From contig PBTA01000030.1 in assembly GCA_002726395.1 (NCBI GenBank), positions 29,877-93,876 on the forward strand: a DNA stretch of 64,000 nucleotides. The letters run 5' to 3'. Below, piece by piece: positions 8,901 to 54,144 of this stretch (position 1 is its first letter; every line of letters begins with the position of its first letter). Made by a program: the position numbers and the translations under genes. The DNA is from Methanobacteriota archaeon. Lineage in GTDB: Archaea > Thermoplasmatota > Poseidoniia > Poseidoniales > Poseidoniaceae. Under the pieces are notes generated by a model, which was not told where the DNA came from, did not search any database, and saw nothing but the letters and a program-made list of their open reading frames with translations.

Positions 8901-9797
8901 GCTATAGAACAGTATGCTGAGTGCGAGGAACGGCTAAATTCAATGAAGGATGAATTTAAGCAGTTGCAAGCCAGAAAAGCAAACCTTGTCGACATCACAG
9001 AGAAATTAGAAAGCCAAAGAAAGTCAAAGTTGATTAAAGTATTAGATAAAGTAAATGAAAATTTCAAGAACTCGTACAAGATTTTGAGCGATGGTGGAAA
9101 GGGTGAACTGTATTTAGAAAACCCTGAGGAACCATTCAAGGCAGGTCTCGAATTATGGGCTAAGCCAAAGGGTAAATCGTCTAAGGTTAACCGTTTACAA
9201 TTGTCTGGTGGAGAACAATCAATGGCTGCTTTAGCGTTGATTTTTGCCATTCAAGATTATGACCCAAGTCCGTTTTACTACTTTGATGAAGTTGACCAAA
9301 ATCTGGATGCGGTAAATGCAGAATTGATTGCTAAGATGTGTCGGCAGAGAAGTAAGAAAGCTCAATTCATTATGGTCACCTTGAGAAAGGTATCATTGAG
9401 GCTTGCAGACCATCATATTGGAATTACTCATGGTGGAGACGGCTGCAGTAGAAGAATTGTCGACTTTGATCGTGACAGAGCCATTGAATTGAGCGAAATT
9501 GAATCTGCCAAGGACAATCCACTCGATGAAAGGATCAATGCAATAAAGCTTGAAAAACAACTTGAAGCAGATTCTGACATGCCAACTGTTCCAGAACCGT
9601 TGCCACCACCTAGTAGCCTAGGTGGATTGTTAAACTATACTGAAGATGATGACATTGAAGACTCCTCAATCTCGAGTCTTGCGGATAGGGCTAGTGAACT
9701 GACTGAGGATATTGAAGAACGGCAAGAATTAGTTGAAGCGATTGAAGCAATTAATGAAGAATTAGCAAAAGAAGATGACTTGGAAGTTAAAGAATAA
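5907..9797 (+). CDS. smc: Chromosome segregation protein SMC
   Basis: N-terminal Walker A (ITGPNGSGKSN). A central hinge (GG-rich segment IIGSIAELCAPVD...GGGM). Long coiled-coil arms. C-terminal signature and Walker B (LSGGEQSMAALALIFAIQDYDPSPFYYFDEVD). About 1296 aa including an acidic C-terminal tail. Confidence 0.92.
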   Translation: MGMYLKALEVSNFKSFKGEVTIPLERGFTAITGPNGSGKSNCGDAIQFVLGPRSNKTIRAQNSKDLIFNGGNNNKPARSCNVTLVFANPTLDNGRRRLPVNLDEVRMSRSIRLTKSGNVVTNYHLNDEESSQKSFHRILGAANARPDGYNIVLQGDVTSLAKMTAKERRKVLDSVAGVTLYDDEIRKADRQKQSVEDYIERIKLLEDGQKSRLKDLKKQKDLAMKVKDLVEELNQSRIIAYQANYASQLAEKQYQVDEQARYLQEANDLDLQVKEGSKKLLSLDDQVGELQRQIEELTGGENKGLNKLIFDLHLKIDTNKDRISDAESKDLDDKNEVMVLNEQLENAASALEEFIRTLDSAQTDLETSKSSLKEAKSEELAVQEIMESSGDESAKFSQHLTKLLGELGLANETLNAAQTEVNRTAAQAEIISEQLSNAQQESEENRLLLGELELQGEEFTGPNSTVDRNKLSTDLITAQRSEGKLVEESQLIENKLRESERKRERLRAEMETSSGAKGMAGGAAAIIAARDNGELTGIIGSIAELCAPVDSSHDSALATAIGGGMTSIIVESDEVAARAIKWLAERRAGRATFLPLNKLNSNRTAGKALMVSKKPGVIGFAHELLDYDPKIDIAIKFVLRNTLIVDSLSTARSNMGGVRLVTLRGDVTEAGGAMVGGSKRKMSVSFGGGIKGATEVEKLSSEISKLQLMSETVNAALLEARREQQRLRTKINELTDSDHAVKLQEWRAELKQAKTVYNKSLGEITTIEKKLLDLEGLASGHIDELDDAQSVVADLESAILAARAQLESASPEHLKDRMHAAEIKRLDAEGTMSKALAALESGSEHKDLLNQRVQDLESRIRSIDKAIIERSEMIDTLQAAIATDSIDLKDKEEERTQLLEENKGLEDERIELVDERASLRTELQQKSTDSQSRRRLSDELSRSIVNKDMAINELYSEMQSNGVEPAELDVTLPSVGDADKKVRTLERAMERHGPVNMLAIEQYAECEERLNSMKDEFKQLQARKANLVDITEKLESQRKSKLIKVLDKVNENFKNSYKILSDGGKGELYLENPEEPFKAGLELWAKPKGKSSKVNRLQLSGGEQSMAALALIFAIQDYDPSPFYYFDEVDQNLDAVNAELIAKMCRQRSKKAQFIMVTLRKVSLRLADHHIGITHGGDGCSRRIVDFDRDRAIELSEIESAKDNPLDERINAIKLEKQLEADSDMPTVPEPLPPPSSLGGLLNYTEDDDIEDSSISSLADRASELTEDIEERQELVEAIEAINEELAKEDDLEVKE

Positions 9798-9812
9798 TCG
9801 TGAGGTGAGGGC

Positions 9813-10985
9813 TTGTCAACAAAACAATCAGTATTGGATAAATGGTTCCTTAGGCAGGATATTATCAATCAATTACTTGAATCAGGCGAGGAATCAGAAG
9901 ATGCGCTAAAGTTCGCTGAACGAATTATGCCAGTAGTTGAAGCAGAGGAATCCGAATACCAATCACTGGATGACCCATTTGACAGGTCGGTAGCCTTAGT
10001 ATTGTCATTGGTTAAAGACCAGGAACTAAACCCCTGGGACATAGATTTGTCCACTTTCTTGAAAGTATTTACTAAACGGGTTAGATCTGAATCCGATAAA
10101 CTGAATTTACCTGCATGTGGGCGTTTGATTAGGATGGCTTGGGAAGTTTTGAATCAACAAGCAATGGTGCTATTTGATAGAGTACAAAACATGGACCAAG
10201 AAGAGGATTGGGAGGATGAAATTGATTTTGGATGGGAGTCGGATTATGATGACCAGGATTATCTGTTTACTACTTCAATTCTAGAAGGGGATGTAGAACA
10301 ATTACTTCCATCATTGTTTGACGAAAGAATACGTCGAGACGAAGGTAGGCCAGTGACTTTAGGTGAACTTTTATCTGCCTTCAAAGATGCTGCAGAGGAC
10401 GCAGAAGAATTAAAAATTCGAGAAGAAAACAGGATTGCACATCAAGCAGAATTAGGTGACTATCTGAACAATGTTGGTAGTAGGATGCATAATGAAGATT
10501 TGGAAGGTGACATCTATAGATGCTGGTCAGCGCTTAGAAAGGCTTGTCAAAAATCGGGTTCAGCCAAAGTAAAAGTAATTCAGGTAATGGCTGAATTAAA
10601 TGATATCTTATTGGCTGAAAATGGTCATATTGAACAAGGCTATGAAGAAGAATCTAAAGTAGCATCATTCATAGCCAGCCTGTTTTTGACTCATCGAGGA
10701 TTTGCTCTAATAAGTCAAGATGAAGTACCCTATGGTGATATCATGTTAGAAGATTTATGGCCAGGGGTCACAGAGTTCAATGATATCAAGGAACTTATTG
10801 AGGATAAAAAGGAAGTTCAAAGCAACTCTTCAGAGAAAGAAGAGACAGGTTCAGTACAATTTGCCAAACGTCGAGCCGAAAAAATAAGAGCAAAAGAAGA
10901 GAAAGCGAGGAAACAATTCGAGCAAGAGCAAATCCAATCATCAGTGGAAGATGATTTGCCTGAGCATGATTGGTTGGTAGAGTAA
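9813..10985 (+). CDS. scpA: Segregation and condensation protein A (ScpA kleisin), a long acidic form
   Basis: Immediately 3' of smc. N-terminal ScpA-like helix (ALVLSLVKDQELNPWDIDLSTFLKVF) and a C-terminal winged-helix-like region. At 390 aa it is longer than the typical ~250-aa ScpA, owing to acidic inserts. Confidence 0.55.
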   Translation: MSTKQSVLDKWFLRQDIINQLLESGEESEDALKFAERIMPVVEAEESEYQSLDDPFDRSVALVLSLVKDQELNPWDIDLSTFLKVFTKRVRSESDKLNLPACGRLIRMAWEVLNQQAMVLFDRVQNMDQEEDWEDEIDFGWESDYDDQDYLFTTSILEGDVEQLLPSLFDERIRRDEGRPVTLGELLSAFKDAAEDAEELKIREENRIAHQAELGDYLNNVGSRMHNEDLEGDIYRCWSALRKACQKSGSAKVKVIQVMAELNDILLAENGHIEQGYEEESKVASFIASLFLTHRGFALISQDEVPYGDIMLEDLWPGVTEFNDIKELIEDKKEVQSNSSEKEETGSVQFAKRRAEKIRAKEEKARKQFEQEQIQSSVEDDLPEHDWLVE

Positions 10986-10997
10986 GGATTTGATTAC

Positions 10998-11603
10998 ATG
11001 TCAGAAATACAACTAGATACATTACTTGAAGCAACATTATTCGGCGCGGGTAGGTCGATGACAGTATCTGAGTTATGTCAGTCATTAGGCTATGATGAGG
11101 AGGAGATGTTGGATTGTTTATTCTCGCTACGTTCCACGCTCAAAAGGCGTCGCGGAGGAGCTCTACAAATCGCTGAAGTAGGTGACAGGTGGGCCATAGA
11201 AGTTAAGCCGGAAATTGCCACTCATTTGCCTAAGGGTGCTAAGACTGATCTGCCAAAAAAATTACTCAAAGCAGCATCTCTTATTGCTTACCATCAGCCA
11301 ATGTCACAATCAAGACTGGTTGAATTATTAGGTCAGAAGGCATATGATTATGTTAGAGAATTAGCTCAATATGGCATGATTGACCGTCGTAAGGACGGTA
11401 ACACCAGAAGATTAACGACCACCAGAAGATTCTCTGAAGCATTTGGTTGCCCTTATACCGACCGTAAAAAAGTCAAAGCATGGTTTAGAGAACAAGTTCA
11501 AAACACCGGTATTCTGGACGAATTAGAAACCAATGATGTGCTAAAAAGTGAAACTGAATATCAAGGGACTGTTCAAGGAACGTTACAATTTGAGGAAGAG
11601 TGA
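10998..11603 (+). CDS. scpB: Segregation and condensation protein B (ScpB)
   Basis: ScpB-like N-terminus (LEATLFGAGRSMTVSELCQSLG). About 200 aa with tandem winged-helix character. Position 3' of scpA. Confidence 0.6.
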   Translation: MSEIQLDTLLEATLFGAGRSMTVSELCQSLGYDEEEMLDCLFSLRSTLKRRRGGALQIAEVGDRWAIEVKPEIATHLPKGAKTDLPKKLLKAASLIAYHQPMSQSRLVELLGQKAYDYVRELAQYGMIDRRKDGNTRRLTTTRRFSEAFGCPYTDRKKVKAWFREQVQNTGILDELETNDVLKSETEYQGTVQGTLQFEEE

Positions 11604-18481: not shown

Positions 18482-19726
18482 TCAGAATTGTTTTTTCACC
18501 AACATTTCTAATCTCTTAGCAATGTCACTGGGTAAGAAATGCGGCATTGAAAGATGGGTAGTTCTTCCTCTTCCACCGGTAACTGTAGATATTCTGGTGA
18601 CGATTAATTGTCGCTTCTCGAGTTCTTTGAGATACTTCCATAATGTGGTGTGGCTCTTCATTTTTTCATCATATTCTTCACAAACTACGGCGTATAGGTT
18701 TTCTACATCTCCAGTAGTCATAGAACTCTCTTTTCTAAGTCTTCGACAAATTGCTAAAAGAACCAACATTGCGTGGGGTTGAAGATTTTCCAACGCATCA
18801 ATTTCGCTAACAATATCAACTGAAAGTTCTTTGTCTTTTGAGTGTACATCATCGGCACTAATTTCCCTTAGTGTGTGATCATCTTGTCTTATTTCACAAG
18901 CCTCTGCTGCGGCTTTTAGTAACTCGATTGCCAATCTAGCATCGCCTATTGGAGCAGATTTTTGTGCTATAAGTCTAATTATGTCATCTGAGCATGAGCC
19001 ATTTGCCAAAGATAAATCAGCTCTCTGTTTACTAATTTTATACAACTCATCTTCATTATATGACGGGATTTGAATCAAGTTGGTTTTCCCCATTCTTGAT
19101 AGGACTGCAGTCTCTAAAACATCGATAATTTGTTCCTGGCTAATTAGAATTAGTGACAGAGTACCTTTGCCTTCTTGGTCTTCATCAATTCGGAGTAGTT
19201 GATACAGAATATCGTCTCCCGATTTTCTCAACATGTGGTCAACTTCATCTAATATCACGATTAAATGAGCAGAATTTCGCCTGGTTAGCTTTCTTAAACT
19301 GAGTAGTAACTCTCCCATAGATAGCCCTCTATCTGGGTGTCCTGGGTCTATTGCGTGTAGTATTCGTTGAACAACCCTAGTGCTAGTTGATGCGTTACGG
19401 CAGTTAACATGAGCTATGCGAATCTCTCTTCTATTGGCTAAATGTCGTTTAAGGTCACGGCAGAAGGTTTTGACAAGAACAGTTTTACCACTCCCTACTG
19501 GACCTGATATGACTGCTCTGCAACTAGTCTCTGGCTTGTCTATAGAAGAAAATCTAGCAGCCAACTTATTTTGAAAATCTTCTCTTCCAACAATGTTTTC
19601 TGGTACATAATCAAAATCTAAAGGTCCTGGGTCTTTGATTACGTAACCGGCACCAATTCGGTCAAGATAGCCACTCATAACATCGGAAGGGTTACGCCAA
19701 CCGTTATTGAATATACGCTTTAACAA
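18482..19726 (-). CDS. cdc6: Orc1/Cdc6 replication initiator
   Basis: AAA+ Walker A VISGPVGSGKTVLV. Walker B ILDEVD. C-terminal winged helix. About 414 aa. Confidence 0.85.
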   Translation of the reverse strand: MLKRIFNNGWRNPSDVMSGYLDRIGAGYVIKDPGPLDFDYVPENIVGREDFQNKLAARFSSIDKPETSCRAVISGPVGSGKTVLVKTFCRDLKRHLANRREIRIAHVNCRNASTSTRVVQRILHAIDPGHPDRGLSMGELLLSLRKLTRRNSAHLIVILDEVDHMLRKSGDDILYQLLRIDEDQEGKGTLSLILISQEQIIDVLETAVLSRMGKTNLIQIPSYNEDELYKISKQRADLSLANGSCSDDIIRLIAQKSAPIGDARLAIELLKAAAEACEIRQDDHTLREISADDVHSKDKELSVDIVSEIDALENLQPHAMLVLLAICRRLRKESSMTTGDVENLYAVVCEEYDEKMKSHTTLWKYLKELEKRQLIVTRISTVTGGRGRTTHLSMPHFLPSDIAKRLEMLVKKQF

Positions 19727-30873: not shown

Positions 30874-31557
30874 TCAGTTTCTCATCTCTAGCCATGCTAA
30901 AAAGGAAACAATTGGTAGTAATATCAACAGCATTCTGTTTAATTTATTTTGATAAGCATTGTACTCATGTGAGGCTATAGGGTTCACTTCTATAGATTTT
31001 GCTTTACGGGATCTTCGCAAAACACCTACTTTGTCTTCGACTATTTTTAAGACACGGTTTCTAAGTTCTGGTGAAGAACTCTTGTGGTTTCCTCTGCCAA
31101 CAATAAATTTTACCGTAGTTGTTTCAGCAATATCCAGTGCAGCATCAACTACTCCCTCCACATTAGTAAGATTGTGCATATCGATTCTTAGGTTCATTCC
31201 ATCACTTGAGATATGACTTAGAGTACGCCATTTTCCTTGTCCTTCATTATACTTGGATAATTTTTCCCTAGCTTCAATAAGCGGCTCTTTGGTTAATATT
31301 ACTGGTTTTCTTCTTCTCGATAGGAATGGCCCAAGCAAGAGGGAAAACAAAAATGGTGGAATGCACATTAAAGAAATAGTTCTTTGAACATTTTCAGCGT
31401 CGGTAAGAACAGAGATAGTTGCGAGAGAAAAACCGAGGTAAAGGCCAATCAAGCCACCGGCTTGAAACCCCATGGTGAGTCCAACCGGCTCTCCAACTTC
31501 ATCTGCCATGTTATGGCCAAAGCCGGATTGTAGAAGAATACTTTGACATGAATTCAT
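30874..31557 (-). CDS. Membrane-anchored Smr (small MutS-related) domain protein
   Basis: Three N-terminal TM helices. C-terminal IDMHNLTNVEGVVDAALDIAE...FIVGRGNHKSS...LRNRV matches the Smr domain pattern (DLHG...A.....I.G.G.HS). Confidence 0.45.
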   Translation of the reverse strand: MNSCQSILLQSGFGHNMADEVGEPVGLTMGFQAGGLIGLYLGFSLATISVLTDAENVQRTISLMCIPPFLFSLLLGPFLSRRRKPVILTKEPLIEAREKLSKYNEGQGKWRTLSHISSDGMNLRIDMHNLTNVEGVVDAALDIAETTTVKFIVGRGNHKSSSPELRNRVLKIVEDKVGVLRRSRKAKSIEVNPIASHEYNAYQNKLNRMLLILLPIVSFLAWLEMRN

Positions 31558-31578: not shown

Positions 31579-32304
31579 GTGTATGTGAACAAGAATGGAT
31601 TAGCCTCTCGTGACCGAGAGAAGAAAGTTGGGAACTGGGTGTTTTATGTCTCAGCTTTCTTTTTCATTTCTTTTTTTCTTGCACCAATAATAGTAGGTAC
31701 CGGAGAAGTCCCGCCTTTAGAAGCAAGAGCAAATGCCTTTGATTATGCAACCAGTGACGGCATGTGGTCTTCAGGTAATGATAACTTAGAAGATGACTTT
31801 GCCTGGACTGAATTAGATCCATACTCGGCGTTGATTTACGGGTTTGGAGACCTCAACTGTCATCAAAAATATGAGCGTTCTTGGATAATAAACGACAATC
31901 AAATGCCAGTTTGCACTAGAGACGTTGGAATCTTTTTCGGACTTGCTGTTGGGGGTTTTTGGTTTTCAAGAAAGGGATACAATCGTTGGACTGTAAAAGA
32001 CACTTGTCTTTCTTTACTACCCGATAGATGGTTACTTAACACCTATCTAAAAAATCGTAGAACCTTAGTTTGGCTTTTGTGCGGCTTAGCCCTTTGTTTA
32101 CCATTGATCATCGATGGTTTCACTCAATTATTAACTTCCTACGAATCAAATAACATTACTCGCCCGCTTACAGGAATTGGATTTGGAGTTGGATTGGGGG
32201 TACTAATTAGTGCTACTTATTCGGCTAAGTCAAAATATTTCAAATCAGCATCACAAGTTAGTTTGCCGGGTGGGATGAAGTTTCAGCTCGTCGAAGAAGA
32301 GTGA
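31579..32304 (+). CDS. Hypothetical polytopic membrane protein
   Basis: Multiple hydrophobic helices. No motif recognised. Confidence 0.3.
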   Translation: MYVNKNGLASRDREKKVGNWVFYVSAFFFISFFLAPIIVGTGEVPPLEARANAFDYATSDGMWSSGNDNLEDDFAWTELDPYSALIYGFGDLNCHQKYERSWIINDNQMPVCTRDVGIFFGLAVGGFWFSRKGYNRWTVKDTCLSLLPDRWLLNTYLKNRRTLVWLLCGLALCLPLIIDGFTQLLTSYESNNITRPLTGIGFGVGLGVLISATYSAKSKYFKSASQVSLPGGMKFQLVEEE

Positions 32305-32305
32305 A

Positions 32306-33664
32306 TTAAGGCGGAAGTGTTTTCCACCAAACGATTAGTTCTTCTATGCTACTAGGTACTGGGCATTCACGATGTCCGCTAGTCAGTATTACTAATCTCT
32401 CTGTGACATCTTTAATACATTTTTTTAGTTGATAAGCCGGTAATTTTGCTGGATTTTTTTGAATAATTTCTTCTAGACATATTTCCCACTCACTACTTGG
32501 ATTTGCCCTACGCCATGATGATATTGACGTTCTCAATGGCCACATTGCTAGAGCAAGTCTACCAAAACCAAGACGCTCTTCTCTAAGTTTGAAGACTTTC
32601 GCTTCAGAGAATGGTATGTGATTGAACTGTTTATTAATCCACTTTTCTTCTTCCAACCATTTGACTAAACGTTGTGTATGTCTCCTAGTGATCATTCTGT
32701 GAGGGCCAAGAAGTTTATGCAATTTTGGTACTTCAGTTGATCCACCAATAAGGGATAGAGAACCAAGAATTGACCACGAGGATAATGAAAAAGGATTAAT
32801 TGGGACATCGAATTCCTTAGCAGATTTTTGAGGCCAATTATCTTCGGCGAATTTCATCCATTTTGCAGGAGAGTTTTTCGCCAACCAACCCTCGTGTATA
32901 GCAGTCATATTCTTCGGGGCGCCAGGCAGTCTTGTTTGAGTTTCTAGATTGCCGATCATTTTAGAAAGTAAGTACCTATCTACTTTGTCGCTGTCTACAT
33001 TTAATGGCGCTGGTTTTTTGTTAAAGAAAGTTCTAAGAGTATCACTTAATTTTTTCTTTAATTCATCTAGTCCAGATTCATTCAAAATAGGTCCAACAAC
33101 CTGGCATTTATCAAATGGCTCAGGTACCTTGATTTTGCCTGATAATAAAGCTCTAAAACCCTTGCGGATTTGCTTTTGAATTTCAGTAGTTTCAAAATAT
33201 TCCTGCTTATTGCTGGTCATTCTCAATGTACCGGAACGGATCCTTTTCATTGCTTTTACAGGGTCGCAATCAATCCAAATTACTAAATCAGGTATCATTG
33301 CTGCAGCATTCATTTTAACTACGTCATCAATTCCTAGTTCGCCGACTATACCTTGGTAAATCATTGATGAATGTATATTTCGGTCAGATACCACTATCTG
33401 CCCTTTCTCAAGTAAAGGTTTGATGATAGTATGAGAATGGTCTAAGCGGTCTGCTGCGAATAAACCAGCCTCTTGTAGTGGCGTTTTGTCGCCTTTCATT
33501 ACTGATTCTAGGGCTAATTTGCCTAATTCACTATGTCGTCTAGGTTCGTGTGTCGAATGTATTTTTGGAAACGGGAAGTCATTCAAAATTTCACCAATTA
33601 TCCTAGCAGCCTCTCCTTTGCCAGAACCATCTCCTCCTTCGACTGAAATGAGGTACATCTTCAA
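32306..33664 (-). CDS. Thymidylate kinase-like protein with a non-canonical P-loop and a ~250-aa C-terminal domain of unknown function
   Basis: YLISVEGGDGSGKGE (P-loop with GKGE in place of GKT/ST). LFAADRLDHSHTIIKPLLEKGQIVVSDRNIHSSMIYQG matches the TMK DRxxH/DRY region. LID-like KAMKRIRSG. Residues about 200-452 have no recognised fold. Confidence 0.55.
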   Translation of the reverse strand: MKMYLISVEGGDGSGKGEAARIIGEILNDFPFPKIHSTHEPRRHSELGKLALESVMKGDKTPLQEAGLFAADRLDHSHTIIKPLLEKGQIVVSDRNIHSSMIYQGIVGELGIDDVVKMNAAAMIPDLVIWIDCDPVKAMKRIRSGTLRMTSNKQEYFETTEIQKQIRKGFRALLSGKIKVPEPFDKCQVVGPILNESGLDELKKKLSDTLRTFFNKKPAPLNVDSDKVDRYLLSKMIGNLETQTRLPGAPKNMTAIHEGWLAKNSPAKWMKFAEDNWPQKSAKEFDVPINPFSLSSWSILGSLSLIGGSTEVPKLHKLLGPHRMITRRHTQRLVKWLEEEKWINKQFNHIPFSEAKVFKLREERLGFGRLALAMWPLRTSISSWRRANPSSEWEICLEEIIQKNPAKLPAYQLKKCIKDVTERLVILTSGHRECPVPSSIEELIVWWKTLPP

Positions 33665-34506
33665 TCCTCTAAGTAATCTTCATACTGATCCTTTACTAAC
33701 GAATTTAACGCCATACCAGCCAGTATCAAAATGGGACCAATCCAAATAAGACCACGGCTAAATAAACTAATTCCAGCAAGGTATTGTGTCCTTCTGTATC
33801 GACTAGCCCTTCTAGTTTCTACTGATGCTTGTATGCCAACAAATCCAGTTATAATGGTCATCACTCCAAGGAATGTTGATAATGCAACAGCTGCTTCAAG
33901 AGACCATCCCCCTTCACTATCTACGAAGTCTTCTTGGATTATAATTGATGGATTACCAGTTTTCATGGTAAACGGACTCATTAACCCATCCTCAGCAATA
34001 AATGTACGCTCAAGGCTGCTATAACCATCTTTTACGACTCTTATTGTCATCGTTTCGGGTTTGACATTATCCAACTGGAAGTATCCGTTATCATTGGTAA
34101 GGACTGTCTGAATTACTGAATTTGAATTATCTTCGTACAGTTCTATACTTGCGTTATTTATGGCAACGCCGTCATCGGTTAGTACTTGACCAGTCAAGTC
34201 CACTGTTTCTGCCTCGTTAAATAAGGAAGAATTTAGCAAATCGCCTGGATTGCCTTGCAGCAAGATTCCACCACTAATTATGCCTAAGATACTGCCTACC
34301 AGTATTGCAATGGCTGCAATCATGCGCAGTTTAGATCGTTCATCATAGTCTAAATCAATCATCGGTTTTACAACAATATCCTGTTGAATATTTTCTTCAT
34401 TTTCAGTTAAGTCAGAATAATGTATTGCTTCATTTGGGGAATCAATTTGTGATTGAACACGCTTCCGAAGTTCAGCCCTGCGCTGCTCAAAACTTTTCCC
34501 AGTCAT
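33661..34506 (-). CDS. Membrane protein with an extracytoplasmic carboxypeptidase-regulatory-like (CarbopepD_reg) beta-sandwich domain
   Basis: GQVLTDDGVAINNASIELYEDNSNSVIQTVLTNDNGYFQL between TM helices. ATGA overlap with the TMK-like gene. Confidence 0.4.
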   Translation of the reverse strand: MTGKSFEQRRAELRKRVQSQIDSPNEAIHYSDLTENEENIQQDIVVKPMIDLDYDERSKLRMIAAIAILVGSILGIISGGILLQGNPGDLLNSSLFNEAETVDLTGQVLTDDGVAINNASIELYEDNSNSVIQTVLTNDNGYFQLDNVKPETMTIRVVKDGYSSLERTFIAEDGLMSPFTMKTGNPSIIIQEDFVDSEGGWSLEAAVALSTFLGVMTIITGFVGIQASVETRRASRYRRTQYLAGISLFSRGLIWIGPILILAGMALNSLVKDQYEDYLED

Positions 34507-34536: not shown

Positions 34537-34571
34537 GCGCGGATAATACCTCTTCCCTTGTTTGTCCGCGC
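34537..34571. other. Inverted repeat (7-bp perfect stem GCGCGGA/TCCGCGC, 21-nt loop) in the 97-bp spacer between two co-directional minus-strand genes
   Basis: Seen directly in sequence. It lies 3' of the M28 peptidase gene and 5' of the membrane-protein gene. Confidence 0.3.
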
Positions 34572-34603: not shown

Positions 34604-35914
34604 CTAATTCATATTATTCTTTATTTGATTCTCCCACCAACTATTACTCTCATCTTGTTCAGAATCTTTATCCGAGTGTAAATCTTCTTTTTGTTTAGTA
34701 ATCAAACCAAAGATTAACACCACTAAGCCAAAGACTGAAAAGCCAAAGACTGAAATAACAATCAACAATGAAATATACTTCTTATACCCATAATCTGAAT
34801 TTGCTGAATTATCACTGTTAGTGTTACTGCTTTCTGTATTGTTGATATTTTCTTTATTTGTAATGTCATCTACCAAATTCCAAGCAGATGTCCTCAAACC
34901 AAGTTCAAGAATAGATCCAATGTAGTTAAGCGACTGTGAACTTACTTTGTCTGCAGTATCATTCTGGGTATGCCAATGCCCTCCAAAAGAAGGTGCATTT
35001 TCACCGTAATTTATGTCGATAAAATTAATCGCAGGGATTCCCGCATTGTGTGCTGCGACATGGTCGTCTATCACTCCTCTCTCATCATTTGGATCTGGAT
35101 TGTAGATGTCTTGGCCGTTATTGCCATTACAGTCCAGCTCACCATCTATCATACCAAGTGCGGCTGTTATTGGGGTTATTGTTTCCCAAAGCCTATCAGA
35201 GGTGCTGGTAACTCTGGTGAAGTCAAGGTAAATATCCCCTATCATGTCTATTACGATATATGCAGAGATATTTGCTTTGTAATCATTGGTCAAATTACTA
35301 ACCCAAGCATCTGCGCCGTAAGACCAAGTATTTGCTTTGTAAGGTTGTCCTTGATCTTCAGCATCAGTAAAAAATAGAGTAACATCATGATTAATTTGTA
35401 ACGATGGTATTATTCTTCCAAGTTCGATTAGTACAGCAACACCACTTGCTCCATCATTTGCCCCTAAAATTGGCTGGTTTCTTTTTGATTCATCAGCATC
35501 CCTGTCCGCTATGTACCTACTATCATAATGAGCGACGAATATCACATTTTGTCCCGTTGTATTATCAGGGCTGTAAGTGCCGACTAGATTTGTTAGAGTA
35601 AAATTAGCTCTTTGATGCGATGATTCTGTAAATGACCATTCTGTGAGGTTTTCCGTGACAGATTGGCGAAGTTCTGCCGAAGCATCAGACCCGGGTAAAC
35701 GATATCCTAGACTAGTTTGCCAAGAGACCGACTGATTGGCTTTTGTAGCGTTAAACTGTAATTCAGAAATTGAATCACAGGGGTCGCTTCCCAGATATAT
35801 CTGTTGAGAGTTATTTGAAGAAATAGTGGTTGACAGCATCAAAATAAAGACGATAAATACGCTCGATATGACCCTGAGTTTCAGGTTATTGTCATGCGGT
35901 TTGACAATGAGCAT
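34604..35914 (-). CDS. M28-family zinc aminopeptidase, secreted with a C-terminal TM anchor
   Basis: FVAHYDSR, GANDGASGVAVLIELGR and FFTDAEDQG (M28 Zn ligand blocks). N-terminal signal peptide. C-terminal hydrophobic helix followed by an acidic tail. Confidence 0.7.
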   Translation of the reverse strand: MLIVKPHDNNLKLRVISSVFIVFILMLSTTISSNNSQQIYLGSDPCDSISELQFNATKANQSVSWQTSLGYRLPGSDASAELRQSVTENLTEWSFTESSHQRANFTLTNLVGTYSPDNTTGQNVIFVAHYDSRYIADRDADESKRNQPILGANDGASGVAVLIELGRIIPSLQINHDVTLFFTDAEDQGQPYKANTWSYGADAWVSNLTNDYKANISAYIVIDMIGDIYLDFTRVTSTSDRLWETITPITAALGMIDGELDCNGNNGQDIYNPDPNDERGVIDDHVAAHNAGIPAINFIDINYGENAPSFGGHWHTQNDTADKVSSQSLNYIGSILELGLRTSAWNLVDDITNKENINNTESSNTNSDNSANSDYGYKKYISLLIVISVFGFSVFGLVVLIFGLITKQKEDLHSDKDSEQDESNSWWENQIKNNMN

Positions 35915-36000: not shown

Positions 36001-39000
36001 ATGTCGGAAAAACGCTCTACAAAATCACTGTTTTTAATTGGCCTGATGGTAATTTCTTTTTTGACCCCAGTTTTGTCCTCGGCATCGGCTGATGAACAGT
36101 TAGACGGCCAGGATGATGAGTATGATGCACAAGGAATAATTATCGGCGATTTAACAGAGTTTGATCCTGCCGACGGTCGAGAGTATTTGTTGATTGAAGA
36201 AGACACTGCGGTCGTATCAGCATATGGTTTCATGAAGCAGGCATGGATTGACTCAGGAAGGCCTGGAGTTGATGATATGAAATATGAACCAGTAACTCAC
36301 GGCAGAGCAAGTGGTAGAGTCTGTACGCCCCACTTAACTGGAGACGCCCTTACAGTTCCAATTTCAGGTGGTTCTATTGATGCATATGTCGCAAAGACTA
36401 CCAACACTGTGGCGTTTATTGTTCAAACAGGCAGAACTCTATCATCAACTGTTTTAAATAATCTAGCATCGTCTTGGGATTCAACAATTTACCCAACAAT
36501 GACCACTTACTACGGGAAAGATTACGGTGACGGACGTGGACTTGCTGCTCCAGATATAGACAACAATTGTCAAGTGCAAATCATAGTATACGATATTGAT
36601 GGGGCATTCAATACTGGTGGTTACTTTGCTCCATCATTTGCTAGTGTAAGGGAGTCTGTTTTCATAGACTTTGCCGACATTACCCTTAACTGGGGCAAAT
36701 CAATAATTGCTCACGAATTGCAGCATTTACTGCACAATGCCCAGGATCCTTATGAAAATTTATGGATTGATGAAGGCAATGCAGATGTAGCAATATATCT
36801 CTGCTTTGGCCCTGACTCAACACTGGTTAGTCATCTAAATCAATGGACAGAAGCTCCTGAATTGTCCATAAGATGGTGGAATCAAAGATTTGCAGACTAC
36901 GGTGCAGGATTTATTTTCACAATGTATTTGGCCGATCATTTAGGTGGCGGCCCAGCAGTAAGACAATTGGTTCAAGACTCGGCTACTGGCGGGGTAAGTG
37001 TTCAAAATCTAGCATTATCGCCTCCTTCGGGCTCCTCTGGTGCGATTGGCCGGACCATGGGAGAGATTTTTGCTAATTTCTCAGTCGCAGCATTTTTGGA
37101 TTCAGAACAAGGGATTTACGGGTTTTCGAATCTAGACTTAACTCCAGTTTGTAGTTCGAATTCTTTCTGTCGTGCCCAGCCAACTGAAGTAAATAGTGAT
37201 TGGAGCACTCCATGGTCATCAACTGGTAACAGCGTTGAAGGATGGGGACTTAGAGGATTTAAATTCACTCCTGGCTCATCATCTCCAGCACCTTTGACAA
37301 TTAGGTTAACTGCGGATGTAAGCCAATTTGACGGCGTTATTGTTAGCAAATCAATGGTTGATGGTCTACTTTCAGTAACAGACTTGACATTCCAAAATAA
37401 TGTTGCTACTGCTCTTGTTCCTGGTTTTGGTAATTTGACAGATGAAGTTTGGGCAATAACTTGGTATGCAAGCACAGTAGCAGATTGCGATTACACTTCT
37501 TGCGGCTCATCTTACCCCCAAGGAACGGTTGATGTTGAAGCTGCAAGAATAACTTCCCCTGCTAGTTTGACTATCAATAACTCAGTTTTATCAGATAGAG
37601 ATGGCGATAGTAATGATGACACTGTTCAAGTAAACTTTGATGTTTTCTCTAACGCCTTTTTCGAAGATTTAGATGTTGATATCAGCATTTTAGATTCTAG
37701 TGGTAACATAATTGACGAGAAGACTTCTAGAATTTCAGCCGGTGGTGGTGTTAACTCAAACAGCAATATTTGGTTTACTGCGCCAAATGATGGTCAGTAT
37801 ACGGTCAAGTTTGACATGTACGATATGATTGGAACTCTTGTTGACAGTGTTTCAACCCAAGCTTGGGCTTTATCCAATATGCGTCCAACTGCAAATGCAT
37901 CAGTTTCTACTAATGTGTCTCAAACATGGGAAAACATACAATTTGTCGGTGACGGATTTGATGCTTGGGGTTTGTCCCTAGACAATAATACCTTGCCATA
38001 CCTAGACCAACCGGTTGCTTATGCATGGGACTTTGGTGATTCAGTCACTTCTAATTTGAAATCCCCAACACGTTCTTATCAAAATGCTGGATTGTATAAC
38101 GCAACGTTGCGAATAATGGATCAAGGGAATACCTGGTCTGAAACAGATGTTGTTCAAATAAATGTTACAGATGATTCAGTGCCAATTCCAGTTATTACAG
38201 TAAATAACGTTGTCATTACAGACAATATTAGTATCTTGACAGAGCAAACAATTCAATTTTCTGCTTCTCGGACTGTGGACAATGTTCCTTTGAGTAATTT
38301 AGATTTCCAATGGGAGTGGGGTGATGGAACATTAGATTCTGACACAGGTAAATATCTAGTCCAGCATAAATGGGATGCAATCAATCAAGAAGTAGAAGAG
38401 TACAATTTGACTCTGTCGGTATTTGATGGCTTCAATACTGGTACTGTTTCGATTAGTGTATTTGTCAATAATAGAGTTCCATATCAAATCTTTTCAGATA
38501 ATTTGACCACTTACACATACACTTCAGTCCCAATGCCAGATGTATTTGCTGATGACGATGGAACAATTGTTTCATATGATTGGGTATTTCCAGAAGGTGT
38601 TAACCTAAATGGTGGGATTACCGATCAAGGAGACGACTTTTTACAGACCACTTCAAGTGATACTTATCCTAACCCCTCTTGGGATTCTCCTGGAATAAAA
38701 ATCGTAACTCTGACAGTTACCGATGATGACGGTAGCCAATCTACTACACAATTATTTGTTAATGTGTTAAATCAAATTCCTGTAGCAGACTTCATTGTAA
38801 GGATTACAGAGAACGGCGAGACTTCGGCTATAGACTTTAGAGCCGAGGATGGTTTTGTTGATGTCCCATACACATTTGATGGAATCTCTTCTTATGACAT
38901 AGATTCAACTACTGGCGATTCTGCTGGATTAATTTATAATTGGTCATTTGGTAGTGATGAATTCAGTGAAAATGCCATTACTACATACACCTTCACCGAA

Positions 39001-40212
39001 CCTGGAACCCACGAAGTCTCACTATTTGTGACGGATGAAAACGGTGCGGATAGCACAGTTAAGAAAATCATTGTTAGGGTTCAAAACCCACTGCCAATAA
39101 TTTCCGTTCAAATATTGGATGGATGGGTCGATGGGCAACAAATGGACAAAAATACCCCTCGTCCAGAAGGTTTCTTACCTGATTCTTGGACTCATACCTT
39201 TGATGAAGCAGAAAATACCTATACAGCCCCTAATTTGATGCTATATTTTGACTCAGAGGGTACAAGAGATGGGGATCGGAGGTATGAGGGCAAATACTCT
39301 CCTGTAAACGATGAAAATAATGATCAATGGAATGGTATTGTAGAATATACTTGGGATTTCGGTGATGCAACACCACTATCAAAACAAGCTTCGCCATGGC
39401 ATTATTATGATACGCCGGGGGCCTACACTGTTACGCTAACTGTCAGGGATTCATACGGGACTGGAGACGTAAGTAAGCAAGTCTTTACTATAGTCGTTGA
39501 TGAGCCGCCGGAAATCAAAAAGATCGAAATTCCGGATGATATAATCATTGAGGAAAAAGCCTATTTAAGCGCAAATATTACTGATTTTGAAGTCGCTAAC
39601 AATATCCTATTATATCGTGACTTGAATATCGAAGATGGGTCATTATTCGACCGAGATGAATCGCTAAATCCCGATCTTGTAGTAAGATGGGATATTGACA
39701 TTTACAAAGACTCAAACAAAAATGGGATATTGGAAGATGATTATATTACTCCTCAACCTAACGCAGTCAATTATCGAATTGAGAGTTTGTGGAATGAATC
39801 GGGCAGTTACACTATTATTGTGGAAGCATGTGATAGTTTAGGGATATGTACCTCTATGGAAGAAACCTTGCAAGTTTCACCTAAACCAGATCCTGAACCA
39901 TCATTATCAGATTTTGAACTAGAAGATTGGACTTCATGGGTTAAAGATGCAGGCTCTGATCTTGCAACCTACTTTGCATTAATTGCCGTTGCCTTGATTC
40001 TAGGCTGGTTAGTATTGAGGGAATCATCAGAGTTAGAAGATGAGGCTAAACAAGCTGCAGAAACATACACCGACGTGGAGCACGTTGAAGTTCAAGGTGG
40101 CTTGCTTGGTATGGACCAACATACTCCTCCACCGGCCCCGGGGATATTATCTAAAGAAGAGCGTAGAAGTGAAGATAGTGGTTACGTAAGGCCATTAAGA
40201 AGAAGAATTTGA
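36001..40212 (+). CDS. Large surface protein: N-terminal MA-clan zinc metallopeptidase domain followed by multiple PKD/Ig-like domains, a C-terminal TM anchor and a charged tail
   Basis: Signal peptide. HELQHLLHNAQDPYENLWIDEGNAD (HExxH plus downstream WxxEGxA gluzincin pattern). Repeated roughly 90-aa modules with W.FGDG-type PKD signatures (AWDFGDSVTS, EWGDGTLD, NWSFGSDEF, TWDFGDATP). TM helix ALIAVALILGWLVL near the C-terminus. Confidence 0.6.
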   Translation: MSEKRSTKSLFLIGLMVISFLTPVLSSASADEQLDGQDDEYDAQGIIIGDLTEFDPADGREYLLIEEDTAVVSAYGFMKQAWIDSGRPGVDDMKYEPVTHGRASGRVCTPHLTGDALTVPISGGSIDAYVAKTTNTVAFIVQTGRTLSSTVLNNLASSWDSTIYPTMTTYYGKDYGDGRGLAAPDIDNNCQVQIIVYDIDGAFNTGGYFAPSFASVRESVFIDFADITLNWGKSIIAHELQHLLHNAQDPYENLWIDEGNADVAIYLCFGPDSTLVSHLNQWTEAPELSIRWWNQRFADYGAGFIFTMYLADHLGGGPAVRQLVQDSATGGVSVQNLALSPPSGSSGAIGRTMGEIFANFSVAAFLDSEQGIYGFSNLDLTPVCSSNSFCRAQPTEVNSDWSTPWSSTGNSVEGWGLRGFKFTPGSSSPAPLTIRLTADVSQFDGVIVSKSMVDGLLSVTDLTFQNNVATALVPGFGNLTDEVWAITWYASTVADCDYTSCGSSYPQGTVDVEAARITSPASLTINNSVLSDRDGDSNDDTVQVNFDVFSNAFFEDLDVDISILDSSGNIIDEKTSRISAGGGVNSNSNIWFTAPNDGQYTVKFDMYDMIGTLVDSVSTQAWALSNMRPTANASVSTNVSQTWENIQFVGDGFDAWGLSLDNNTLPYLDQPVAYAWDFGDSVTSNLKSPTRSYQNAGLYNATLRIMDQGNTWSETDVVQINVTDDSVPIPVITVNNVVITDNISILTEQTIQFSASRTVDNVPLSNLDFQWEWGDGTLDSDTGKYLVQHKWDAINQEVEEYNLTLSVFDGFNTGTVSISVFVNNRVPYQIFSDNLTTYTYTSVPMPDVFADDDGTIVSYDWVFPEGVNLNGGITDQGDDFLQTTSSDTYPNPSWDSPGIKIVTLTVTDDDGSQSTTQLFVNVLNQIPVADFIVRITENGETSAIDFRAEDGFVDVPYTFDGISSYDIDSTTGDSAGLIYNWSFGSDEFSENAITTYTFTEPGTHEVSLFVTDENGADSTVKKIIVRVQNPLPIISVQILDGWVDGQQMDKNTPRPEGFLPDSWTHTFDEAENTYTAPNLMLYFDSEGTRDGDRRYEGKYSPVNDENNDQWNGIVEYTWDFGDATPLSKQASPWHYYDTPGAYTVTLTVRDSYGTGDVSKQVFTIVVDEPPEIKKIEIPDDIIIEEKAYLSANITDFEVANNILLYRDLNIEDGSLFDRDESLNPDLVVRWDIDIYKDSNKNGILEDDYITPQPNAVNYRIESLWNESGSYTIIVEACDSLGICTSMEETLQVSPKPDPEPSLSDFELEDWTSWVKDAGSDLATYFALIAVALILGWLVLRESSELEDEAKQAAETYTDVEHVEVQGGLLGMDQHTPPPAPGILSKEERRSEDSGYVRPLRRRI

Positions 40213-42427: not shown

Positions 42428-47113
<4,686 letters not shown>

Positions 47114-51570: not shown

Positions 51571-54144
51571 ATGGCAGGCCAAGTTGTGTCGATAGATGAC
51601 TTGGTTTTACCCGACAAGGCTAAGAAATTCTTCATAGAACACTGGGGAATTACCAAACTACATCCGCCTCAAGCACAATCTATGGAGGCAGTCTTCTCCA
51701 ATCGTAGTGCGTTAATTGCAATACCCACTGCAAGCGGTAAGTCACTTATTGCATATATCGCGATTTTGCGTAAGTTACTACTCGAGGACATCGGTTCTAA
51801 AGCCATCTACATTGTACCACTCAAAGCCTTAGCTTCTGAGAAGTTTGAAGATTTTAAGGCGCTTGGTAAGGCATTGAATCTAACTATTGGTTTAGGTATA
51901 GGTGATTCATCATCCGAAGCAAAAAGGATTGATGAGTGTGACATACTAGTATGTACTTCTGAAAAATTAGATTCAATAATTAGAAACCGTTCCCAGTCGA
52001 TGTCTAATGTCTCAATTATTGTATCAGATGAATTTCATCTGTTAAATGACGCATCTAGGGGTCCAACTTTGGAAATTAATTTAACCAAATTACGTTATCT
52101 AAGACCTAATGCTCAGATTATCGCTCTATCTGCCACAGTGGGTAATTGCGAACAACTTTCAAATTGGCTCGATGCTGAATTGATAATTTCAAATTGGCGG
52201 CCAGTTGCTTTAGAATATAGTACATTTCATGATTTACATTTGGAGCCTAGAATGGTGCAGTCTGCTAATTTATCAGCTAAAGCAGATTTACTTAATCCAC
52301 CAAGAGATCTCGAAGGTCCAAAATCACAACCTACTTGGGTTGTATTGAATGATACAATAGACGCTTCTGGCCAATTACTAATCTTTGTCGGGACTAGGAA
52401 AAGTGCTGAATCTGAGGCGGTAAAATTAGCCAAAAGAGTGTCAAAAAAACTTTCCACACAAGACGTTGATAGAATTGCTAAATTAGATGATGTGGCAACT
52501 TCTATAGAGGGCGGACGTCAATCTGCAATGGGTGAGAAATTAGTGCAATGTATTCGAGGAGGAACAGCCTTTCATCATGCGGGATTGACTCATAATCAAA
52601 GAAAAGTAGTTGAAAATGCCTTCAAAGAAGGAATTTTGACTTGTTTATCTGCAACACCTACCTTGGCTGCGGGGGTAAATCTGCCAGCAAGAAGAGTATT
52701 AGTTAGAGACATCAAAAGGTGGGATGACGGAATGAGTCGACCTTTGCCGGTTATGGAGGTTAGGCAAATGCTAGGTAGAGCCGGTAGGCCAAAATATGAC
52801 GATTTTGGCGAGGCTTGGGTTCTATGCAAAGGCACTGACGGCTGGGAGGTTGCAGATATGGTTAGTGAGAAGTACTTTTTTGGAGATGTGGAGCCGATAA
52901 ATTCCAAGTTAGCAGGCGAGCCTGCTTTGCGCACCCACATTCTTTCAATTATATCGACAGGCGGAATTCAGCATAGGGGAGAAATAGGAGATTTCTTTGC
53001 CGCAACATTTCTCGGATTTTCGACTCCAAAACATATCTTGAAAGAAAAGATTGATCAAACTCTTACATGGTTAACTGAGGAACGTTTCATTAGAAAAGTA
53101 GGAGTTGACAAATCTTATTCTGAGGCACGTGCAGATAAATTCGTAGATAGTGATGACTGGGATGACAACGTTCCTGCTTGGGCAATGGTTGCAAAATCCA
53201 CTCAAGGTGTCGAGATGAATGGTGAAAATAATTCCAATACGAACAACAAAATAACAGCACATAATAAACCAGTATTAGGGTTTAATCTCGCATCTGAATT
53301 GAGCTCTATTGGTGCATGGCATTCAAATGATTTGGATGAATTTTCAGGTATGAAATATGAGGCTACGTTAATGGGCGAGAGGATAACCCAACTGTACCTT
53401 GACCCATTGTCAGCATCTATCATTAGAACAGGACTTAGAAGAGCGATAAGAAGAATTGTCAAGGACATTGCCCCAGTAACCAATTTTGGACTTTTACACC
53501 TAGCAACATCAACTCCAGATTTCACTTCATTGTGGGCGAAAAACTCAGAGATGGAGCCAAATTCAAAGTTATGGATAAAAACTAACTCTGTCGAAGATGA
53601 ATTATTATCGGATTCCAGTTATGATGAAATGCTACTTTCCAATGTTAAATCTGCATGGATGGTTGAAATGTGGTGTGAAGAATCAAACATCCGTTCTATA
53701 GAGAAAGATTTAGACGTTAACCCTGGTGATATTAACTATCGAGTTGATATTATGGCATGGCTGATACATTCTTCACGAGAAATAATTTTGACGGATGATG
53801 TATTCTCTGATGAACACATGCCGCAGATTGCTGAACTGATCAAACAATTAGACGTATTGCGTTTGCGGGTAAGACACGGTTGCAAAGAAGATTTACTTAC
53901 CTTGGTAAATATTCCAAATGTCGGTCGATATAGGGCACGTGAGTTATCTAAACTTGATATAAGAACTCCTCACCATGTGGCAAATATGACCAAAAAGAAA
54001 AGGGATCAGATTTTAAAAATACGTGGTTGGGGTCCTCAGTTATTGGATAAAATAATGCTTGAGGTAGCTAAAGTGATAGAACCTTCCAAGCAGCAAAAAC
54101 GAAAGGTTCGTCTTGATGACATACCCTTAGATGATGAAATTTGA
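51571..54144 (+). CDS. hel308: Hel308/Ski2-like ATP-dependent DNA helicase
   Basis: Motif I AIPTASGKS, DEAH-type motif II SDEFHLL, motif VI GRAGRP. C-terminal winged-helix, ratchet and HhH domains. About 857 aa, typical for Hel308. Confidence 0.85.
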   Translation: MAGQVVSIDDLVLPDKAKKFFIEHWGITKLHPPQAQSMEAVFSNRSALIAIPTASGKSLIAYIAILRKLLLEDIGSKAIYIVPLKALASEKFEDFKALGKALNLTIGLGIGDSSSEAKRIDECDILVCTSEKLDSIIRNRSQSMSNVSIIVSDEFHLLNDASRGPTLEINLTKLRYLRPNAQIIALSATVGNCEQLSNWLDAELIISNWRPVALEYSTFHDLHLEPRMVQSANLSAKADLLNPPRDLEGPKSQPTWVVLNDTIDASGQLLIFVGTRKSAESEAVKLAKRVSKKLSTQDVDRIAKLDDVATSIEGGRQSAMGEKLVQCIRGGTAFHHAGLTHNQRKVVENAFKEGILTCLSATPTLAAGVNLPARRVLVRDIKRWDDGMSRPLPVMEVRQMLGRAGRPKYDDFGEAWVLCKGTDGWEVADMVSEKYFFGDVEPINSKLAGEPALRTHILSIISTGGIQHRGEIGDFFAATFLGFSTPKHILKEKIDQTLTWLTEERFIRKVGVDKSYSEARADKFVDSDDWDDNVPAWAMVAKSTQGVEMNGENNSNTNNKITAHNKPVLGFNLASELSSIGAWHSNDLDEFSGMKYEATLMGERITQLYLDPLSASIIRTGLRRAIRRIVKDIAPVTNFGLLHLATSTPDFTSLWAKNSEMEPNSKLWIKTNSVEDELLSDSSYDEMLLSNVKSAWMVEMWCEESNIRSIEKDLDVNPGDINYRVDIMAWLIHSSREIILTDDVFSDEHMPQIAELIKQLDVLRLRVRHGCKEDLLTLVNIPNVGRYRARELSKLDIRTPHHVANMTKKKRDQILKIRGWGPQLLDKIMLEVAKVIEPSKQQKRKVRLDDIPLDDEI

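Follow-up and report, generated by a model that had tools for sequence, protein, structure and literature searches.

Every cell needs a dTMP kinase. Thymidylate kinases (TMKs), P-loops of the GKG type and fusions of an enzyme to a winged helix-turn-helix (wHTH) domain are each known already, and NadR and BirA are bacterial examples of enzyme-regulator proteins. In archaea, RbkR consists of a wHTH domain and a riboflavin kinase, with substrate and product modulating its binding to DNA (PMC5397151). A gene within a 64,000-nucleotide stretch of contig PBTA01000030.1 (positions 29,877 to 93,876, referred to as the window), from an archaeon of the family Poseidoniaceae, encodes a protein of two domains, the first a TMK with a GKG P-loop and the second a domain predicted to adopt a winged-helix fold. 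Pfam, the PDB and the searchable literature contain no description of this combination or of the C-terminal domain itself. The protein is judged moderately likely to be the dTMP kinase of the order Poseidoniales (Marine Group II), active and with a lineage-specific, MarR-like nucleic-acid-binding module, which would make it bifunctional in the style of RbkR, NadR and BirA.

In an abundant marine archaeal order, the Walker-A Ser/Thr of a TMK has been exchanged for Gly and the enzyme joined to a winged-helix domain outside the database families, and the annotation 'dTMP kinase' ignores half of the protein. Should the C-terminal domain bind DNA, the protein would be a further case of an enzyme that also acts as a regulator, and would connect gene expression or the chromosome with the supply of thymidylate in a lineage without cultured members. 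Otherwise the domain would still represent a new domain family, attached to TMKs in which a GKG P-loop apparently works. The features of the gene are as follows.

32306..33658, minus strand: gene of the two-domain protein, 450 amino acids (aa) from the ATG at 33658, with the stop codon at 32306-32308
33017..33658, minus strand: TMK domain, residues 3 to ~216, delimited by PF02223, TIGR00041, TMKs of the PDB and Foldseek
33611..33637, minus strand: P-loop G10-G-D-G-S-G-K16-G17-E18, with Gly at the position of the usual TMK Ser/Thr
32309..33016, minus strand: family-specific C-terminal domain, residues ~217-452, basic and Trp-rich
32585..32785, minus strand: winged helix-turn-helix unit, residues 294-360, from the secondary structure of both models and Foldseek
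32648..32686, minus strand: putative recognition helix RRHTQRLVKWLEE, from residue conservation

The open reading frame (ORF) was originally called at 32306..33664 on the minus strand (452 aa, TTG start at 33664). As MYLISVEGG is the N-terminus of all homologues, this TTG start is probably wrong and the ATG at 33658, giving 450 aa, correct. Residue numbers follow the 452-aa ORF throughout.

The thymidylate kinase domain and its P-loop

The N-terminal half belongs to the TMK family, in agreement with an earlier, sequence-only reading of the stretch. Residues 8-175 matched PF02223 (Thymidylate_kin) with an E value of 9e-31 and 107 bits (cut-off 27), and the whole protein scored 114 bits against the dTMP-kinase equivalog TIGR00041 (cut-off 83). 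Solved TMKs (T. thermophilus, S. aureus, T. maritima, E. coli and human) matched residues 5 to ~170 (best E 7e-12), and Foldseek superposed the AlphaFold2 model of this half on ~50 TMK chains, including those of S. aureus, human and T. maritima, with target-normalised template modelling (TM) scores of 0.75-0.85 over ~215 columns and E values of ~1e-8. No substitution was seen in 74 sequences at E40-P41-R42-R43, F69, R73, D94-R95, S99-S100 and Y103-Q104 or at the lid residues R141 and R148, and members at 37-43% identity also retain all of the dTMP-binding and lid motifs. In the alignment with the TMKs of T. thermophilus and S. aureus, EPRR, LFAADR, SDRN, SSxxYQG and R141/R148 fall on the motifs that bind dTMP or form the lid; the counterpart residues in solved TMKs stack on and hydrogen-bond the thymine and bind phosphate. 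The protein is therefore alike to the TMKs of S. aureus (4DWJ), T. thermophilus (5X7J) and T. maritima (3HJN) in fold, domain length, the EGxDGxGK frame, the dTMP-binding motifs (EPxx, FxxDR, DRx and SSxxYQG), the lid arginines and above-cut-off scores, but differs from them in its GKG loop and in ~235 extra residues, with a winged-helix domain that is absent from solved or described TMKs.

The P-loop is present as it had first been read, GGDGSGKGE: a Gly (G17) follows K16, so the Walker-A pattern GxxGxGK[ST] does not apply, and the remaining loop (EGxDGxGK) is canonical. A homologue search over 5.8 billion clustered proteins gave 701 relatives, the best 120 of which were compared (64-99% identical; 118 full-length at ~450 aa and two truncated). 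EGGDGSGKGE was found in 119 of these best 120 relatives and GKGA in one, and all distant full-length members obtained with the C-terminal half as query (36-43% identity) carry EG(G/P)DG(S/T)GKG, followed by a variable position (E, L, I, T, A or V). A sequencing error in the P-loop is ruled out by the presence of GKG in 120/120 close homologues and in every distant one, no orthologue with GKT being found among those compared.

Where they are named, the best 120 relatives are 'dTMP kinase' from Poseidoniaceae, Poseidoniales or Euryarchaeota metagenome-assembled genomes (MAGs), and public records give the protein no other name. In GTDB data with one genome per species, 428 stretches encode a relative; the best 80 of the 428 were inspected and are all full-length and in Poseidoniales-type loci. 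One distant cluster of the set at 36-43% identity is labelled Thalassarchaeaceae, the second family of Poseidoniales. Since the fusion and its GKG loop were found throughout close and distant members, they are taken to be order-wide in Poseidoniales. Two of these 80 loci, both of Poseidoniaceae type, occur in alphaproteobacterial MAGs, labelled 'Rhodobiaceae bacterium' (L078, CALDQY010000065.1) and 'Salipiger bermudensis' (L079, CAXQWT010000032.1); these are probably mis-binned archaeal contigs.

Adenylate kinases hold Mg2+ via waters and phosphate oxygens, without a Walker-A hydroxyl. The deposited sequence of the E. coli enzyme reads GAPGAGKGT, and as this active kinase uses GKG, the loop is compatible with fast phosphoryl transfer in a nucleoside monophosphate (NMP) kinase fold. 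Adenylate kinase (GxPGxGKGT; E. coli 1AKE/4AKE) and the Poseidoniales protein share GxxGxGKG and the NMP-kinase fold. However, the latter has no ADK family match, its NMP-binding and lid regions are of the TMK type, and Glu or a variable residue takes the place of the Thr that follows GKG in adenylate kinase. In the favoured reading, Mg2+ is handled as in adenylate kinase and would be coordinated at the GKG site by water and phosphates, not by a Ser/Thr hydroxyl.

From the aberrant loop, the sequence-only reading had proposed a repurposed dNMP-kinase fold in place of the housekeeping tmk. Such a protein would act on another substrate or only as a nucleotide sensor, with a canonical tmk elsewhere supplying dTDP. 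The family-wide change of the Walker-A Ser/Thr to Gly fits this proposal, as do neighbours that are membrane-protein and peptidase genes and not genes of nucleotide metabolism. However, GKG is normal in active adenylate kinase and compatible with catalysis, the thymine- and phosphate-binding residues are invariant, the equivalog cut-off is passed and the model superposes on TMKs, so that the loop is not evidence for repurposing. In addition, hundreds of Poseidoniales-type stretches carry the protein, and no second TMK was found in the 64-kb window by tblastn. Repurposing is considered improbable. Judging from its sequence, the protein is probably still the dTMP kinase of the cell: kinase activity is predicted from the equivalog score, the intact dTMP and lid motifs and the modelled TMK fold, while the same score, together with an intact active site and occurrence throughout the order, suggests that it is the sole, housekeeping TMK.

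The C-terminal domain and its predicted winged-helix fold

Residues ~217-452 gave no match in Pfam, NCBIfam or PDB sequences when searched as a single sequence, nor in Pfam and the PDB when searched with a profile, and no known TMK-associated C-terminal domain was found in Pfam, NCBIfam or PDB searches or in the searchable literature. A fusion to a domain of ~235-250 aa outside sequence families, as described in the sequence-only reading, is thereby confirmed; its further statement that this half has no recognisable fold stands as regards sequence families, but not as regards structure, as the model shows a winged helix similar to that of MarR proteins. When residues 201-452 were compared by phmmer with 1.84 billion cluster representatives (50% identity), 49 proteins were obtained, which are either ~380-455 aa long with the match beginning at ~residue 200 or short fragments, and none of the 49 carries the domain with another N-terminal partner.

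The AlphaFold2 model of the C-terminal half, built from an alignment of 23 C-terminal halves including distant clades, is mostly helical and has a predicted local distance difference test score (pLDDT) of 86.1 and a predicted TM score (pTM) of 0.79. The wHTH elements lie at its centre and comprise helices at residues 294-303 and 312-319, a recognition helix at 327-339 and a beta-hairpin wing at 343-346 and 357-360; the wing is followed by two helices, as in MarR proteins, and then by three more. The top matches of this model in the PDB (Foldseek) are mostly MarR-family regulators, several of them DNA-bound (7KFQ, PefR 7DVS, PecS 8YLI and ST1710 3GFJ), with a probability of ~1.0, target-normalised TM scores of 0.43-0.50 over ~155-160 columns and identities of 11-17%. 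A weak Pfam match to PF01047 (E 0.011) was obtained for 2/23 members and none for the query itself. As modelled, the domain appears to share with MarR regulators (PF01047) the topology of helix, HTH, wing and two helices, but differs from them in its extra helices on both sides and its C-terminal attachment to an enzyme, and the rmsd (root-mean-square deviation) of the superpositions is high. Since neither sequence nor profile comparison is significant, the likeness to MarR is one of fold and not of family.

The isoelectric point (pI) of the C-terminal domain is 8-11 in 22/23 members, those of the TMK halves being computed as mostly ~5-6, and the domain contains 11 Trp. Residues G320, P321, R323 and R328 are unchanged down to 37-43% identity, and 74/74 closer members share R328-H-T-Q-R332; the positions conserved family-wide are concentrated in the HTH turn and at the beginning of the recognition helix. 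The basic pI and the conservation of the turn and recognition helix suggest a nucleic-acid ligand, and the domain is accordingly modelled here as a putative nucleic-acid-binding module. A possible metal site formed by H431 and C434 was ruled out, as these residues are not conserved in distant members.

A basic domain of this type might instead serve, with no transcriptional role, as a non-specific tether of an active TMK to DNA or to the replisome, which would place the production of dTDP and dTTP at the site of DNA synthesis. The region does hold orc1/cdc6, SMC/ScpB and gyrBA, and the protein has at its C-terminus an invariant L-x-x-W-W that recalls the hydrophobic end of PIP boxes. The WW helix is, however, well packed (pLDDT ~90) and has no conserved Gln, which makes a PIP box at the C-terminus (EELIVWW) atypical and unlikely; the invariant recognition helix suggests a specific target, and the neighbourhood is weak evidence for localisation. 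Tethering is considered very improbable.

The palindrome upstream of the operon and a possible regulatory role

The genes and the intergenic element that surround the fusion gene are the following.

33661..34506, minus strand: CarboxypepD_reg membrane-protein gene, 281 aa with a beta-sandwich; its stop lies 2 nucleotides (nt) before the TMK ATG
34537..34571, minus strand: intergenic palindrome GCGCGGA-N21-TCCGCGC, a candidate promoter and operator, or RNA hairpin
34604..35914, minus strand: M28 peptidase gene, which heads the same-strand cluster; a glutaminyl cyclase gene takes its place in some distant clades
31579..32304, plus strand: DUF2085 membrane-protein gene, convergent, its end 1 nt from the TMK stop codon; a conserved neighbour

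The palindrome (GCGCGGA-caaacaaGGGAAGAGGTATTA-TCCGCGC) is located between the M28 and CarboxypepD_reg genes and ends 30 nt before the ATG of the latter, followed by a Shine-Dalgarno-like GGAGGG. Its core, a purine-rich run followed by TATTAT, resembles the B recognition element and TATA box (BRE/TATA) of archaea. It is single-copy in the window, with 0.01 copies expected by chance. Its general form is (G)TGCGCGGA-N20-23-TCCGCGCA(C), ~30-45 nt upstream of the CarboxypepD_reg-TMK genes, and a version occurs at the same position in 80 of ~83 Poseidoniaceae loci (76 distinct sequences with diverged flanks); loci bearing it at this position are L001, L004-L083, L096, L099, L124 and L143. In the main clade, 36/36 aligned sequences share an unchanged block GGTATTATCCGCGCA, and in a divergent clade the arms GTGCGCGGATA...TCGCGCAC are retained with an altered spacer. 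Changes are confined to the 5' arm, few in number and uncompensated, and an RNA helix hence receives no support from covariation. Folded as RNA, the hairpin has a modest stability (-12.1 kcal/mol, z -2.3); with no Rfam match, no covariation and a z of only -2.3, it was rejected as a known RNA. The element may serve as promoter and operator together or form an intercistronic hairpin, the operator reading being drawn from the resemblance of a palindrome bracketing a TATA-like core to the operator of a repressor.

Among the matches listed in a metagenome scan for the palindrome, most are GC-rich noise, and the 4 low-GC ones are all the orthologous site. A palindrome with 9-bp arms, GTGCGCGGA-N19-22-TCCGCGCAC, was seen on unrelated contigs of 60-80% GC, often in several copies each (L090-L169); other organisms presumably carry them as repeated palindromic elements, without relation to the locus. 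A different inverted repeat, GACAGT-N15-ACTGTC, brackets a TATA-like box (TTTATCC) just before the TMK-fusion gene in L086 (3715-3785) and L087 (1250-1318), which represent a clade where the fusion gene has its own upstream region. Its layout recalls the Poseidoniaceae palindrome but rests on one sequence.

With archaeal RbkR as a precedent, the most economical functional model for the fusion is an enzyme-regulator. RbkR (a CTP-dependent riboflavin kinase, PMC5397151), NadR and BirA likewise combine an enzyme and an HTH or wHTH domain in one chain; their binding to DNA depends on whether substrate or product is bound, and the gene of the regulator lies within its own regulon. They differ from the fusion in enzyme family and in domain order (the enzyme is N-terminal in the fusion), and the likeness is architectural and not one of homology. 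Under this model, the winged-helix domain would bind nucleic acid, occupancy of the kinase site by dTMP, dTDP or ATP could modulate that binding, and the binding site may be the conserved palindrome bracketing the TATA-like core upstream of its own operon. Both the regulatory role and the link to the palindrome are thus predictions of the model. A narrower version describes a dTMP/dTDP-sensing enzyme-transcription factor, in which the kinase would sense the thymidylate pool, and GTGCGCGGA-N20-TCCGCGCAC at its own promoter, perhaps along with other sites, would be bound by the MarR-like domain; this version is regarded as unlikely. If true, it would constitute a protein-based feedback on dTTP supply in Poseidoniales and the first nucleotide-kinase-based one-component regulator described in archaea, in a group abundant in the surface ocean.

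Several observations weigh against a kinase with a nucleic-acid-binding, regulatory module. No Foldseek match of the C-terminal model in the PDB reached E <= 0.001, the MarR matches having E values of ~0.013-0.1 and an rmsd of ~9 Å. Comparison with E. coli MarR by hhalign gave a probability of 0.4%, and MarR homology by profile was rejected; the sole stretch aligned pairs the two recognition helices. Contacts between proteins, too, can be mediated by winged helices. The full-length AlphaFold model has a pTM of 0.55, and hence no fixed interdomain arrangement or contact is predicted. As for the palindrome, conservation is higher in its 3' arm and TATA-like core than in its 5' arm, a pattern also compatible with a plain promoter. 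In the distant loci L085-L089 it was not seen, and neither the window nor the ±6-10 kb flanking the fetched loci yielded another copy. There is also no evidence linking it to the TMK fusion and not to another factor, for example the nearby HTH_10 protein.

An alternative explanation is a plain housekeeping dTMP kinase whose winged-helix domain is a structural, oligomerisation or protein-protein module without nucleic-acid binding or regulation. All of the TMK evidence applies equally to such a protein, the similarity to MarR is at the level of fold only, Trp and hydrophobic residues make up much of the invariant surface, and no regulon was found in the window, the locus flanks or the metagenome scan. 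However, the domain is consistently basic, and its highest conservation falls on the HTH turn, the recognition helix (R323, R328-R332) and the wing, a pattern expected of a ligand-contacting helix. Taken together, the observations are compatible with a structural or a tethering domain besides the favoured module, and argue against a repurposed kinase. The plain kinase is considered somewhat unlikely, and an active dTMP kinase carrying a nucleic-acid-binding module is retained as the favoured description.

Gene neighbourhood

Between its hydrophobic segments, the protein encoded at 33661..34506 (minus strand) matches CarboxypepD_reg (E 1.5e-11). The junction of its gene with the TMK gene reads GAT-TGA-AG-ATG, that is a stop codon, 2 nt and a start codon; the ATGA stop/start overlap reported in the sequence-only reading is absent, and a TTGA overlap arises only with the unlikely TTG start at 33664. 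The tight linkage of the two genes that it had also reported was upheld: in 77/77 loci, namely those with a recognisable TMK start, a homologous ORF (at least 40% identity to the CarboxypepD_reg protein) occupies the same place, with its end at -1 to +3 nt relative to the TMK ATG.

At 68% identity the gene order is kept as the gene of a giant PKD protein (divergent), M28 peptidase, CarboxypepD_reg and the TMK fusion, continuing with DUF2085 (convergent), a 227-aa protein, HTH_10, PCMT and HEAT. In distant members CarboxypepD_reg and DUF2085 still adjoin the fusion gene, and in L085, L088 and L089 an M28 peptidase or glutaminyl cyclase gene precedes the CarboxypepD_reg/TMK pair. Exceptions are one clade with a convergent CarboxypepD_reg gene and one contig on which an RND pump lies upstream instead. 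The linkage is therefore old but not absolute. No functional logic joining a dTMP kinase to the neighbouring membrane proteins is seen.

The 227-aa neighbour (30874-31557, minus strand) has hydrophobic N- and C-terminal segments and is syntenic in homologous loci at 68% identity; it gave no Pfam match even at E <= 1. A 1403-aa secreted or anchored protein is encoded at 36001-40212 (plus strand), with PKD repeats matched in orthologous loci. Its gene is divergent from that of the M28 peptidase, a pairing kept in the distant loci L085 and L088.

No tRNA or Rfam matches were found in the window, which is an ordinary piece of core chromosome holding SMC/ScpB, orc1/cdc6, eIF2-gamma, S6e, gyrB/gyrA and a Hel308-like helicase. 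Its chromosome-maintenance genes, SMC and ScpB, Orc1/Cdc6, gyrB-gyrA and the Hel308-like helicase, are located at 5907-11603, 18482-19726, 42442-47113 and 51571-54144, and a replication origin may lie near the orc1/cdc6 gene.

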